Below, piece after piece: positions 2,964 through 18,411 of a DNA stretch of 36,514 nt. Numbering within the stretch: position 1 is the stretch's first letter; each line of letters opens with the position of its first letter. This DNA comes from an uncultured Candidatus Saccharibacteria bacterium. GTDB lineage: Bacteria > Patescibacteriota > Minisyncoccia > Phycocordibacterales > UBA9973. Under the pieces are notes generated by a model. That model saw only the letters and a list, made by a program, of their open reading frames with translations. It ran no database searches and was not told the origin of the DNA. A program made the translations under genes and the position numbers. The stretch spans positions 1 through 36,514 of the forward strand of contig CAZWXV010000005.1 of NCBI GenBank assembly GCA_964637995.1, read 5' to 3'.

Positions 2964-3450
2964 AGTTAAAAGGTTTGAAGTTTTTCACTTGTTTTTCGGA
3001 ATTGTCGGCTTGCTTATATTAGAGGGTGTCTTATTGCAATTTCTGCCATTGACTGGCACGGAAGAAGAGACGATTATTATCTCGTTTACCATTATTGGAA
3101 CGATAGCCAATATGTATGTCGCCATTCAAGCTATTGAAAAAGTGAATAGCCGTTTATCTATGCTTATGTTCCTGTTTCTTATCATTTTAGAGTTTATTGC
3201 TTTTTTCGCTTTTGAGTATTGGTATCTTATACTATTTGAGCCGACGAGTTTCCCTACGGTCGCACCCGATATGTTGAGCCTGCTTTTTCATAGCACCATG
3301 GTATTTGTTTTTAACCCGCTTTTTCTGCCGGCGACGGCAGCAGGAAAGATTCTTCTGCTCGTCAACACTTTAAGTTCCCTTGCTATCGTTATTTTTATAC
3401 TCCAAAACATTTGGCAGTTGCACCATCTGCCCCGCGCAGAACAGCTGTAG
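2956..3450 (+). CDS. membrane protein, possibly degenerate Ion_trans_2-like
   Basis: 164 aa, 4-5 hydrophobic segments, 8-nt overlap with the MFS gene. Confidence 0.65.
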   Translation: MYKVKRFEVFHLFFGIVGLLILEGVLLQFLPLTGTEEETIIISFTIIGTIANMYVAIQAIEKVNSRLSMLMFLFLIILEFIAFFAFEYWYLILFEPTSFPTVAPDMLSLLFHSTMVFVFNPLFLPATAAGKILLLVNTLSSLAIVIFILQNIWQLHHLPRAEQL

Positions 3451-3464
3451 CATTTATCAATTTG

Positions 3465-3551
3465 CGGAGGCGGTGAGATTTGAACTCACGATTGGTTTGC
3501 ACCAATGCCGGTTTTCGAAACCGGTGCCTTCAACCACTCAGCCACGCCTCC
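3465..3551 (-). tRNA. tRNA-Ser (anticodon CGA), long variable arm, CCA not encoded
   Basis: Minus strand GGAGGCG...CGCCTCC-G, anticodon arm CCGGT-TT CGA AA-ACCGG, variable arm ATTGGT-GCAA-ACCAAT, T-loop GTTCAAATC. Confidence 0.96.
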
Positions 3552-3686
3552 TCGCTCCGCTCGTCGGCATGGCTTCGTGTCCTTCGGACACTCCCTATGC
3601 CTGATGCTAAAGCATAGCAGGCATTTTTTGCTTTTGCAAAAACCAGATGAAATATGAAGCAGTTCATATTTCATAGCCACGCCTCC
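3540..3686 (-). mobile_element. tRNA 5'-end-duplicating hairpin-rich mini-element (putative)
   Basis: AGCCACGCCTCC at 3540-3551 and 3675-3686; inverted copy GGCATGGCT at 3566-3574; four internal hairpins. Confidence 0.5.
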
Positions 3687-3714
3687 GTAAGGTGCTCTGT
3701 TATATTACGCTATT

Positions 3715-4641
3715 TTACTTTGCGTTCAAGTGGAGATATATATCTTCCAGCGCGCGGACGGCGTCGCCGGCGGCGATGTTGTTCTGGTGATACAGAACAT
3801 TGGTCGCGTCGCCGGCGGCCCAGATGCCCGGTACCTCGGTTTTCTGGTCCCAGGCGTTGATTTTTATCCGCCCGATTTCGTCGAGCGGCACGAGGCCTTT
3901 TACGAGGTCGGTGTTCGGCAACTGGCCGACTTCCACAAATATGCCCGCGACTTTCAATTCTTTTGTTTTACCGCTCACCTTATCTTTATATACGAGCCCA
4001 TCCACAAATTTATCGCCGGTGACTTCGAGGATATCCGTGTTCTTGAGCACGCTCATTTTGGGATTCTTCAAAACTTTTTCCACGGTCACCTCGTCCGCCT
4101 TAAAGTTCTCGCCGCGTATGAGGAGCGTAACGGATTTGCAGTAAGCCAGAAGCTGAGCGGCCGTTTCAAAGCCGGCGTTGCCGCCGCCCACCACGGCCAC
4201 GTCCATATCCGCAAAGAGCGGACCGTCGCAGGAAGCGCAATAGGTGAGGCCCTTATTCTCGAGCCGGTCCGCGCCTTTCGCGGTGAGCTTTCTGCGCAGG
4301 CTGCCGGTGGTTATTAAAATAGTTTTAGCCTCAAATTCCTTTCCGGTTTCCGTGGTTACAGAAAAAATGTCGCCCTTTTTGGCTACCGATTTCACTTTTT
4401 CCCCTTCCTTTACCTCCAAACTGTCGCCCACATTGGCCATGACGTGCTTTTTGAAATTTTCCGCCAGTTCGTTTCCGGAAAGGGAAACGGTGCCTATCCA
4501 GTTAAAAATTTGCTCGGAAACCACGCTTTGTCCGCCCCACTCGGCAGTAATAAAAAGCGCCTTCATGCGCTTCCGGGCGGCGTACACGGCGGCTGCGGTG
4601 CCTCCCGGCCCTCCGCCGATAATTATCAAATCGTAAGTCAT
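3715..4641 (-). CDS. trxB: thioredoxin reductase-like FAD/NAD(P)H disulfide oxidoreductase (TrxB/AhpF C-terminal family)
   Basis: GGGPGG FAD motif, CASCDG redox centre, VVGGGNAG NAD(P)H motif, GIWAAGD. Confidence 0.88.
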   Translation of the reverse strand: MTYDLIIIGGGPGGTAAAVYAARKRMKALFITAEWGGQSVVSEQIFNWIGTVSLSGNELAENFKKHVMANVGDSLEVKEGEKVKSVAKKGDIFSVTTETGKEFEAKTILITTGSLRRKLTAKGADRLENKGLTYCASCDGPLFADMDVAVVGGGNAGFETAAQLLAYCKSVTLLIRGENFKADEVTVEKVLKNPKMSVLKNTDILEVTGDKFVDGLVYKDKVSGKTKELKVAGIFVEVGQLPNTDLVKGLVPLDEIGRIKINAWDQKTEVPGIWAAGDATNVLYHQNNIAAGDAVRALEDIYLHLNAK

Positions 4642-17579: not shown

Positions 17580-18227
17580 ATGAAATATTCTTCCGTGATT
17601 TTTGACTGGGACGGGACATTGGCCATGACGCTGCATCTGTGGCTCGACGGTTTCCGGAGTGAACTCGGAAAACAGGGATTCCGCTATTCGGACAAGGTTA
17701 TCGTGGATGATTTTTTTTACGAGCACGGCAAGGCCGGCATAAAATACCCCGACATTGATTTCAAAGCTCTCGTGCCGCCGGTGCATCAATACGTGAATAG
17801 CCACGTTTCCTACCTTAAAATTTATCCCGGCGCGCGTGAGGCACTAGAAAGATTGCACGAGAATAATATAAATCTGACGCTGGTTTCTTCGAGCGAAAAG
17901 ACGCTTCTGATGGAGTCCCTCAGGCAGGCCGGCTTCCTCGGATTTTTTTCCGCGATCGTTTCCGGCAATGATGTCACAAATCACAAGCCCGACCCTGAAC
18001 CCTTTGAACAAATTCTTAAAATTGCCAAAATGAGTCCAAAGGGCGCCATTGTTTTGGGCGATTCCCATACCGACATTATGGCCGCAAAAGCCGCGGGGCT
18101 CGATTCCTGCCTATTCCTGCCGCCGGAAAATAAAATTTTCTACGACTTTGCCAAGCTCAAGGAATCAAAGCCGACTTTCACAGTCGAAAGCCTGAAAGAG
18201 TTTGCCGCTCTGGTTATCAGTGAATAA
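17580..18227 (+). CDS. HAD-superfamily hydrolase (subfamily IA, Gph/PpaX-like)
   Basis: FDWDGTL motif I, VSS, KPDPEP, LGDSHTD. Confidence 0.9.
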   Translation: MKYSSVIFDWDGTLAMTLHLWLDGFRSELGKQGFRYSDKVIVDDFFYEHGKAGIKYPDIDFKALVPPVHQYVNSHVSYLKIYPGAREALERLHENNINLTLVSSSEKTLLMESLRQAGFLGFFSAIVSGNDVTNHKPDPEPFEQILKIAKMSPKGAIVLGDSHTDIMAAKAAGLDSCLFLPPENKIFYDFAKLKESKPTFTVESLKEFAALVISE

Positions 18228-18278
18228 AAACCCGTCCGGTACGTAGCCGCTTCAAAAGCCCTAAATTACCTTTAGAGC

Positions 18279-18307
18279 TTGACTTTTCTAGCAGAATATG
18301 CTATACT
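18279..18307 (+). promoter_or_regulatory. sigma70 promoter
   Basis: TTGACT-17 nt-TATACT with extended TG. Confidence 0.75.
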
Positions 18308-18411
18308 GCATGAGGTTGCACTTTAAAAAGTCGCTGCTGGAAATAAGGAGCAAAAACATGCTTTTTATTCCCGGCAGTGACACTTCCGGGAGAAAAATAG
18401 GAGATTCACCC

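Follow-up and report, generated by a model that had tools for sequence, protein, structure and literature searches.

A widespread, structured leader that repeats the 5′ end of its own tRNA in Paceibacteria-type bacteria

The DNA analysed here (the window) is a 36,514-nucleotide (nt) stretch of contig CAZWXV010000005.1 from an uncultured Candidatus Saccharibacteria bacterium. On its minus strand, between trxB and an intact gene for tRNA-Ser(CGA), it carries a hairpin-rich insert headed by a second copy of the first 12 nt of the tRNA. trxB lies on the same strand as the tRNA gene and ends in a TAA stop codon at 3717–3715. The tRNA gene (3551–3464, placed there by ARAGORN and Rfam) scores 58 bits with the model RF00005 against a threshold of 29 bits, has a Ser anticodon and a long variable arm, and encodes no CCA. 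Its nt 1–12, GGAGGCGTGGCT, form the proximal copy (3551–3540); the distal copy, which we term the decoy, lies at 3686–3675, giving a start-to-start distance of 135 nt.

Four stacked hairpins (hp1–hp4) follow the decoy. Hairpin hp1 (3674–3647), the signature of the family described below, is a perfect 12-base-pair (bp) stem with a CUGC loop and a conserved apex, AACUGCUU, and is single-copy in the genome of the window (G000). The junction CUGG (3646–3643; family consensus CYGRUU) leads into hp2 (3642–3625; 7 bp, UUUUUGC/GCAAAAA, loop AAAA) and then into hp3 (3624–3597), which consists of a 7-bp lower stem, a small internal loop and a 4-bp upper stem. A purine junction, AGGGA (3596–3592), precedes hp4 (3591–3577; 6 bp, GUGUCC/GGACAC, loop GAA). 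The antisense strand, AGCCAUGCC (3574–3566), is complementary, with one G·U pair, to nt 4–12 of the decoy and of the real tRNA. Finally, a 14-nt linker (3565–3552), made of GAC and a GA-flanked mini-hairpin (GA-GC-GGA-GC-GA), ends at tRNA position −1. An earlier reading of this DNA, made from the sequence alone, had described the two copies, the four hairpins in the 123-nt spacer and the ability of the antisense to pair with either copy; all are present as described, the pairing holding for nt 4–12.

The duplication is not due to chance. Matches to GGAGGCGTGGCT with at most one mismatch occur twice in the window, against a mean of 0.09 in shuffled sequences, and 0 of 100 shuffles reach two. 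Genome-wide, a search of the 300 nt upstream of each of 37 tRNAs reveals a copy of the tRNA's own 5′ prefix, at least 10 nt long, for two of them, compared with 0 of 37 in the downstream control. The only other G000 tRNA of the 37 with such an upstream copy is a tRNA-Met(CAT) on contig C13 (13045–13222), with an exact 24-nt copy of its own 5′ end 106 nt upstream; this copy sits in an apparent decayed partial tRNA duplicate, with a TATAAT box in between and no hp1. Four sets of DNA contigs covering 3300–4000 consist of fragmented contigs that break at the tRNA, with low-confidence joints only and none spanning the insert.

The 139-nt leader has a predicted folding energy of −59 kcal/mol (z = −6.1), and 0 of 200 shuffled sequences fold as well. 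In the predicted fold, the decoy and AGCCAUGCC form a helix, P1, whose 5′ strand is nt 4–12 of the decoy and which closes all four hairpins. We assembled 42 distinct tRNA-Ser leaders, namely the window and 41 of the 45 found (four with 18-nt copies were omitted), and unconstrained minimum free energy (MFE) folds contain P1 and the four hairpins in 31 of the 42. RNAalifold on a MAFFT alignment of all 42 recovered hp1 and hp4 alone, with hp2 and hp3 misaligned; a hand-placed structure on 13 leaders, chosen for alignability, was used instead. In these 13, the 47 pairs of the five-way junction are 90.9% paired, against 31–43% for slid controls, and 24 pairs (66 cells) are changed on both sides, a level reached by 0 of 500 shuffles. 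Double-sided changes affect six of the seven pairs of hp2, and all seven lower-stem and all four upper-stem pairs of hp3. Compensatory changes are also seen in hp1 among relatives. The covariation thus supports a predicted five-way junction in which P1 closes four hairpins.

P1 varies together with the tRNA that it precedes: GTGTCA occurs with TGACAC, GTGTCT with AGACAC and GGAAATG with CATTTCC. Over the 42 loci, its 378 cells comprise 280 Watson–Crick pairs, 34 G·U pairs, 3 A·C pairs and 61 mismatches. Because G·U far outnumber A·C pairs, these counts point to a leader that acts as RNA on the tRNA-sense strand. In 22 sequences, both Watson–Crick pairs of the linker's GA mini-hairpin covary, with six double changes each, and little or no variation is seen at G10, A14 and the GA flanks. 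A conserved, structured core with covariation, as is generic for riboswitch-like RNAs, is therefore present, and the leader is a real, conserved and structured feature.

The locus is one member of a widespread, conserved family, a point that the sequence-only reading overlooked. We scanned the genomes of 185,579 species with a 22-nt hp1 core containing two degenerate positions and obtained 116 stretches, nearly all from Paceibacteria/Parcubacteria-type metagenome-assembled genomes of the candidate phyla radiation (CPR). In 73 of 119 hp1 occurrences, a tRNA on the same strand begins no more than 270 nt downstream (Ser 55, Leu 9, Tyr 6, Gln 2, Ala 1); another 24 sit behind a same-strand tRNA with none downstream, and 22 show neither arrangement within the DNA examined. 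An exact copy of at least 9 nt of the downstream tRNA's 5′ prefix lies beside the hairpin in 57 of the 73 loci; the copy is 12 nt long in 36 tRNA-Ser loci and 15–18 nt long in 10. A BLAST search with the spacer against 60 relatives located the insert in three congeneric species, beginning exactly at the distal copy. One of the three carries two tandem units, and in each the distal copy matches the species' own tRNA variant (GGAGATG..., GGAGACG...GGGT or tRNA-Ser(GCT)). Duplication in orthologues, whose absence would have counted against the sequence-only reading, is thus found: dozens of Paceibacteria-type (CPR) genomes have the insert with its own-tRNA copy upstream of tRNA-Ser.

Among the loci, a covariance model (R1) based on 13 sequences recovered 49 full-length matches that score 55 bits or more, and in an even draw of the class it matched 7 of 151 genomes, including G000. 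In the genomes hit, the hp1 stem varies with compensatory changes, and the apex AACUGCUU, the junction CYGRUU, hp2, hp3 and a purine junction, AUAGGNG, are kept. G000 has one copy of the module and other genomes have one to four. Within the genus, an hp1-like pattern with up to three mismatches occurs in 89 of 201 genomes, two of them unpublished, against about 30 matches for a backwards control pattern. Congeneric species use the module at different genes: it leads Ser-CGA, Ser-GCT, Ser-ACT or Tyr, or follows Ile or Arg. Genes downstream of related modules are mostly tRNA-Ser, Leu and Tyr, and also a triosephosphate isomerase gene and a hypothetical open reading frame (ORF); at greater distance lie RuvB, DUF218, a pyrophosphatase-like gene and the CCA-adding enzyme.

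At gathering threshold, the 4227 models of Rfam 15 matched tRNAs alone in the window and in 20 hp1 loci, and the same was true of nine model-found loci at E up to 0.05. Sub-threshold matches in the window are to scattered small-RNA models. The one near miss, GA-cis (RF02987), was considered and rejected as a family assignment: the match, given by the linker with its GA-flanked mini-hairpin, scores 26.6 bits (E 0.0013) against a gathering threshold of 34.7 bits, and 0 of 151 genomes of the class exceed the cut-off. The T-box model (RF00230) gave no match at E up to 10.

The decoy, the antisense and the tRNA change together. The decoy equals nt 1–12 of its own tRNA in 36 of the 42 loci, across 15 different 12-mers, and matches at 11 of 12 positions in three loci, at 10 in two and at 9 in one; compared with the tRNAs of other loci, copies are identical in 10.5% of pairs. 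Decoy and tRNA differ in six loci, and in four of these (L051, L119, L135 and L084) the antisense has a better fit to the tRNA than to the decoy, by one position or more; L139 is a tie, and in L123 the antisense fits the decoy better. Beyond nt 4–12, the pairing of the antisense with the tRNA takes in GAC/GGA and the GA mini-hairpin, and the result is a single long, irregular hairpin with the RNase P site inside it. In the 22 members with the canonical 14-nt linker this hairpin is 82% paired, and 7 of its 12 pairs are changed on both sides, which 0 of 500 shuffles reach. The lowest predicted energy of the 237-nt precursor, 3696–3460 (−102.3 kcal/mol), belongs to a structure in which the antisense is bound to the real 5′ end and the acceptor 3′ strand to the decoy; formation of P1, which leaves the tRNA free, is predicted at −100.8 kcal/mol, 1.5 above this optimum. 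Mutually exclusive pairing of the antisense with the decoy or with tRNA nt 4–12 is thus seen at the level of sequence and energy. The sequence-only reading had suggested, among other possibilities, a folding switch, and this suggestion fits both the three-way covariation and the nearly equal predicted energies of the two pairings.

The same reading had put a promoter just upstream of the decoy. In the window, the candidate is a weak promoter-like region (3729–3699) that overlaps the end of trxB, with TTGAAC (3729–3724) and TAATAT (3707–3702) separated by a 16-nt spacer and TATAAC (3704–3699) as an alternative −10. TTGAAC and TAATAT match 8 of 12 consensus positions, and a consensus promoter scan listed no promoter-like site within 3300–3900; the window hexamers are therefore weak, and the support for the location comes from the −10 boxes of relatives. 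An extended −10 (TGnTAnnnT) ends 8–17 nt upstream of the decoy in 22 of 41 related loci and lies 3–20 nt upstream of the proximal tRNA in 0 of 41, which places the insert between the promoter and the intact gene, as had been claimed. TAnnnT alone gives 32 of 41 against 0 of 41, and in 6 of 15 insert-free tRNA-Ser genes the same −10 box ends 7–13 nt before +1. With promoter boxes upstream of the decoy and none before the tRNA, the leader is therefore most likely transcribed with the tRNA, and by the same boxes the decoy most likely occupies the place of the normal tRNA 5′ end relative to the promoter. Read-through from trxB, on the same strand, is a possible source of transcription.

The module is also found outside tRNA genes. 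In one genome, G069, a triosephosphate isomerase gene (Pfam E 1.7e-25) and a second ORF each have it as their 5′ untranslated region. The 3′ junction of the module, AUAGGAGA, the equivalent of AGGGA in the window, lies 7–8 nt before the AUG, in ribosome-binding-site position for the two ORFs, and the 5′ arm of hp1 (GGAGAAAAG) repeats the ribosome-binding stretch. As judged from these sequences, G069 appears to have the same decoy/antisense/target layout, the target being the ribosome-binding site.

It is mainly because the G069 module repeats this layout at a ribosome-binding site that we prefer a cis-regulatory reading. We tentatively propose, stopping a little short of calling it probable, that the leader is a transcribed decoy/antisense device that gates the folding of the tRNA 5′ end and its maturation by RNase P. 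The 135 nt from 3686 to 3552 would be transcribed with tRNA-Ser(CGA) as a structured 5′ leader, a member of an undescribed RNA family of Paceibacteria-type bacteria folded as a five-way junction, in which P1 would pair nt 4–12 of the decoy with the internal antisense and close hp1–hp4. Since the decoy and the real 5′ end are identical, the antisense could pair with either. In one state (X), the antisense would be held by the decoy, the tRNA would fold normally, and RNase P would cut between 3552 and 3551 and release the leader. In the other (Z/Y), the antisense would take the real 5′ end, the long irregular hairpin with its GA mini-hairpin would span the cleavage site, the acceptor and D stems would be without their right strand, and maturation would be blocked or misdirected. 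The conserved core (the hp1 apex, the junctions, hp2 and hp3) would sense a putative factor. We infer the switch itself, and any ligand or protein behind it, from sequences and modelled folds. The idea of a long RNase P leader, also raised in the sequence-only reading, is compatible with the presence of RNase P RNA on contig C1 of G000 at 18016–18377, the cleavage itself being predicted.

A bolder version of the proposal, which we consider speculative and on balance doubtful, is that this is a natural 'RNase P riboswitch', the first such: a CPR sensor RNA family (apex AACUGCUU, hp2 and hp3) would bind a putative signal, and a decoy/target strand exchange would switch the maturation of class II tRNAs (Ser, Leu and Tyr) and the translation of some mRNAs.

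The neighbourhood of trxB and tRNA-Ser(CGA) is widely conserved and exists in three forms. Insert-bearing loci are those of the window, L037, L070, L084, L044, L172 and G377; L010, L015, L017, L007, L024 and L027 are empty; and L004 has a deletion scar in which 9 nt of the decoy and the final 10 nt of the linker remain. The empty allele that had been proposed as a check in orthologous trxB–tRNA-Ser spacers thus exists, in six loci and in scarred form in a seventh. A TrxB tree of 14 rows is star-like, with 2 of 11 inner branches supported. The state 'present' requires four changes on the best tree and the supported branches force one, so gains and losses are not countable. The sequence-only reading took the distal copy to be the ancestral 5′ end; both that origin, by insertion, and a copy retained through selection are possible. 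In the closest relative (L176/L194, equal to G238/G377; also L137), a 230-nt unit is inverted relative to trxB and lies about 1 kb further off, with two extra ORFs between. Homology of window positions 3460–3689 to L176/L194 extends 3 nt beyond the decoy on one side and 4 nt beyond the tRNA on the other. Recent transfer of this unit was considered, as it is 98% identical to that of a relative whose trxB is 85% identical as DNA, a comparison that rests on G377/G238 (flagged unpublished), the unit also being in the public record behind L137. TrxB is 95–96% identical as protein; therefore, five leader changes in 230 nt require no transfer, and the idea was rejected.

Several points weigh against a gating device. 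Empty orthologous alleles and a deletion scar occur within the genus; therefore, the tRNA works without the leader. The distribution is patchy, with 7 of 151 genomes of the class hit and empty and scarred alleles in the genus. Duplicative or mobile behaviour is suggested by tandem units at L005/L122 and L045 and by a genome in which near-identical copies (L186/L190) lie 1.8 kb from each other. The genes downstream of the modules share no theme that points to a signal. The sequence of the hp1 stem is unusually conserved for an aptamer helix, and its conservation in the locus set is in part ascertainment, the loci having been collected through the hp1 pattern. Covariation of the antisense with the tRNA is statistically inseparable from its covariation with the decoy, the two strands being almost always identical, and the Vienna energies given above ignore tRNA tertiary structure. 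Transcription of the leader, its 5′ ends and its processing are all deduced from the DNA.

Some of these points recur in an explanation that we regard as possible, if on the unlikely side: a tolerated or selfish insertion cassette. A hairpin-bearing DNA module would have entered tRNA-Ser at nt 12/13, rebuilt the gene and stranded its old 5′ end, possibly by homing linked to small GIY-YIG nuclease genes, or by recombination in which the 12-nt repeat and the tRNA body served as homology arms. P1 would then merely hide the stranded copy from the acceptor 3′ strand, RNase P would remove the leader passively and nothing would be regulated. Target direct repeats of a length fixed per subtype (12, 18 or about 10 nt) flank the insert, as such an element would leave them, and the tandem arrays, the near-identical copies inside one genome, the patchy distribution with congeneric species carrying the module at different tRNA genes, and the empty and scarred alleles at the orthologous trxB-linked locus fit as well. 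Of about 80 loci, 5 have a small GIY-YIG ORF (PF01541, E 1e-11 to 1e-16) no further than 700 nt from hp1, and in G000 such an ORF adjoins tRNA-Tyr; however, the share of 5 in about 80 is roughly that expected of two independent tRNA-linked features. No mechanism known to us would generate a direct and an inverted copy of a target together, and the antisense would need either to arrive with the element or to arise later. The insert has neither terminal inverted repeats nor coding capacity, occurs once in G000 and has no match in 2.9 million viral contigs. Modules group according to tRNA isoacceptor, and their core is conserved far beyond the needs of masking. Furthermore, the trxB–insert–tRNA junction (about 25–28 nt) is kept in four genomes (the window, L070, L037 and L084) whose TrxB identity to that of the window ranges from 56 to 100%, which suggests long vertical residence under constraint. 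Specific kinds of element were rejected: an integrative element with tyrosine-integrase attachment (att) sites, as the 123 nt between the repeats contain no ORF save a frame running into the tRNA; a miniature inverted-repeat transposable element or one derived from an insertion sequence, as no inverted repeat joins the insert ends, G000 has one copy and repeat length varies by subtype; and a phage origin, with 0 matches in the 2.9 million viral contigs. Less probable than the cassette, and in our view unlikely, is an independent, trans-acting small RNA, for which the neighbouring tRNA would supply the 3′ end (when downstream) or the 5′ end (when upstream) via RNase P and whose hp1 may bind a protein. 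It would suit modules that are tRNA-linked on either side (73 of 119 with the tRNA downstream, 24 of 119 behind a same-strand tRNA), present in one to four copies per genome and compact and stable in their predicted fold. It leaves unexplained why the 5′ strand of P1 is the 5′ end of the neighbouring tRNA, why the antisense tracks that tRNA and why the 3′ junction of a module serves as the ribosome-binding site of an ORF.

Three further explanations have little in their favour. The sequence-only reading had allowed for intron-like removal, in which the distal copy would be the real 5′ exon and 135 nt (the insert and the proximal copy) would be spliced out at D-loop position 12/13. The precursor MFE structure does pair the distal and not the proximal copy with the 3′ acceptor strand, with the flanking C(−1) pairing with the discriminator base, and the copy is preserved over its full 12 nt, even at positions outside P1. 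However, neither the tRNA-splicing endonuclease EndA (PF01974) nor RtcB (PF01139) was found in the 95%-complete G000, Rfam gave no match to a group I, group II or other intron at E up to 10, and self-splicing introns are generally larger than the 123-nt insert. Where the copies differ, it is the proximal one that fits the acceptor 3′ strand (L139 and L123), and the intact gene needs no splicing. Removal of this kind is thus unsupported, and we judge it very improbable. Still more remote, to our mind, is that hp1 is a palindromic protein site at the level of DNA, of Xer/dif type or an operator. Hairpin hp1 is a 28-bp perfect palindrome, single-copy in G000 and in four of five large Paceibacteria genomes; its 22-mer also occurs in two epsilonproteobacterial records, and it loosely resembles the single-recombinase difH consensus given in PMC2731167. 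Yet hp1 lies at 15–37% of the genome length from dnaA and not opposite to it, its outer stem positions and long stem extensions covary like those of a folded strand, and its orientation follows the tRNA strand; tandem copies 105–135 bp apart would be unstable as recombination sites. The distance from dnaA and the covariation of the stems led us to reject a dif/Xer site in particular. GC skew in the window follows the gene strand and has no bearing on the position of the terminus. Equally remote is a leader peptide, with the GGAGG of the decoy as ribosome-binding site for an AUG at 3674 in a 64-amino-acid frame (3680–3486; MKYELLHISS...) that runs into the tRNA. GGAGG does lie 7 nt before this AUG, and Tyr, Leu-Leu and Ser-Ser codons in or just after hp1 correspond to the tRNAs with which the module is most often associated. 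In relatives, however, the AUG becomes AUU, AUA, AGA, AAU or GAU, the two hp1 positions that vary do so jointly, as a base pair, which alters residues (Glu to Lys, His to Tyr), the peptides diverge directly past hp1, and the frame in the window ends inside the tRNA. A small ORF in the leader was therefore rejected, on the loss of the AUG in relatives and the divergence of the peptides.

Hairpin hp1 also occurs in two contexts other than leaders, neither of which is in Rfam. Directly behind tRNA-Lys, Arg or Ile (L048, L055, L058, L131, L154, L156 and L157), it forms the tip of a stem that begins within the final bases of the tRNA, reaches up to 38 bp and is followed by repeated GA-hairpin modules. 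Free-standing (L036, L049, L060, L186 and L190), it belongs to an element of about 135 nt with a closing helix of its own, sometimes just upstream of an ORF. The exact 22-mer is found once each, with no tRNA nearby, in a few non-CPR records (L057; L092, from Halarcobacter, Campylobacteraceae; L091, L101 and L117), and these occurrences could be chance, contamination or an unrelated palindromic site. ARAGORN assigns the anticodon ACT (A34), which is unusual for a bacterial tRNA-Ser, to a tRNA-Ser on G000 contig C20 (923–1012) and to those of 13 hp1 loci; such tRNAs often carry the leader module.

Other observations concern the surroundings and the genomes at large. Small GIY-YIG ORFs, one to four per genome, occur in most of 13 genomes searched. 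The one on G000 contig C10 (18401–18831; about 85 amino acids) lies about 120 nt downstream of tRNA-Tyr, and the spacer between them holds GA-flanked mini-hairpins like that before tRNA-Ser. On the plus strand of the window, a 407-amino-acid, lysine-rich ORF (471–1694) occupies a stretch of 32.5% GC in surroundings of about 49% GC. It lies between tRNA-Glu(TTC) and the tRNA-Ser unit, which directly adjoin each other in relatives, and the stretch is possibly foreign DNA. Signal recognition particle (SRP) RNA was rejected as an identity for the leader: RF00169 was not found in G000 or five other large Paceibacteria genomes (G210–G214), and hp1 is without internal loops. The Ffh M domain (PF02978) was likewise not found in the 95%-complete G000, and SRP in these genomes is either very divergent or lost. 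6S RNA was also not found, which is not relevant to the leader.

Bacterial tRNA genes are thought to be controlled at their promoters, and their 5′ leaders are treated as short, disposable tails. A long, conserved and covarying leader that holds both a copy of, and an antisense to, the 5′ end of its own tRNA contrasts with that view. If RNase P gating is true, the leader is the natural counterpart of a device that has so far existed as a synthetic design alone, and it reveals a regulatory layer in ultra-small symbiotic bacteria; as a riboswitch, it would provide post-transcriptional control of tRNA supply in organisms without most known regulators. If it is a self-insulating insertion cassette instead, it shows mobile DNA living harmlessly inside essential tRNA genes. 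No description of a natural element of this kind was found in the main texts of the literature searched.

Integrative elements leave att-site duplications in tRNA genes, and here too a direct repeat of part of a tRNA gene flanks DNA and an intact gene is retained. In contrast, it is the 5′ and not the 3′ part that is repeated, the repeats are separated by 123 nt without integrase or cargo, and the insert itself contains a covarying RNA fold and a strand antisense to the repeat. Homing endonucleases of the free-standing GIY-YIG type occur near phage tRNA clusters, and small GIY-YIG ORFs adjoin tRNA genes in these genomes (5 of about 80 hp1 loci); however, the tRNA-Ser(CGA) locus has no such ORF, and the association is no stronger than two tRNA-linked features predict. 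The likeness to GA-cis RNA is one of motifs alone: window positions 3598–3536 align with its purine stretch, hairpin and second hairpin with tandem G·A pairs. With T-boxes, the leader shares a structured form tied to tRNA biology and GA-type motifs, but T-boxes sense tRNA in trans upstream of protein genes, whereas the leader described here lies in cis on a tRNA gene.

The platforms of riboswitches and attenuators use mutually exclusive 1:2, 2:3 and 3:4 helices, and the strands of their own P1 helices double as anti-Shine–Dalgarno or anti-terminator sequences. The leader resembles them in having a helix-closed conserved core whose 3′ helix strand can pair with the regulated sequence, so that the 5′ strand resembles the target, and in copies that can be tandem and number one to four per genome. 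It differs in its target, which would be the tRNA body (acceptor 5′ strand, nt 8–9 and D-stem) and not a terminator or ribosome-binding site, and in the unusual conservation of the hp1 helix sequence. Synthetic RNase P riboswitches, designed as theophylline-dependent pre-tRNA leaders (PMC7897497 and PMC8925977), share the principle that alternative pairings of a pre-tRNA 5′ leader decide maturation by RNase P. These engineered devices reportedly use a known aptamer and no tRNA decoy, and they sequester the single-stranded leader by the cleavage site, whereas the natural leader would sequester nt 4–12 of the tRNA itself.

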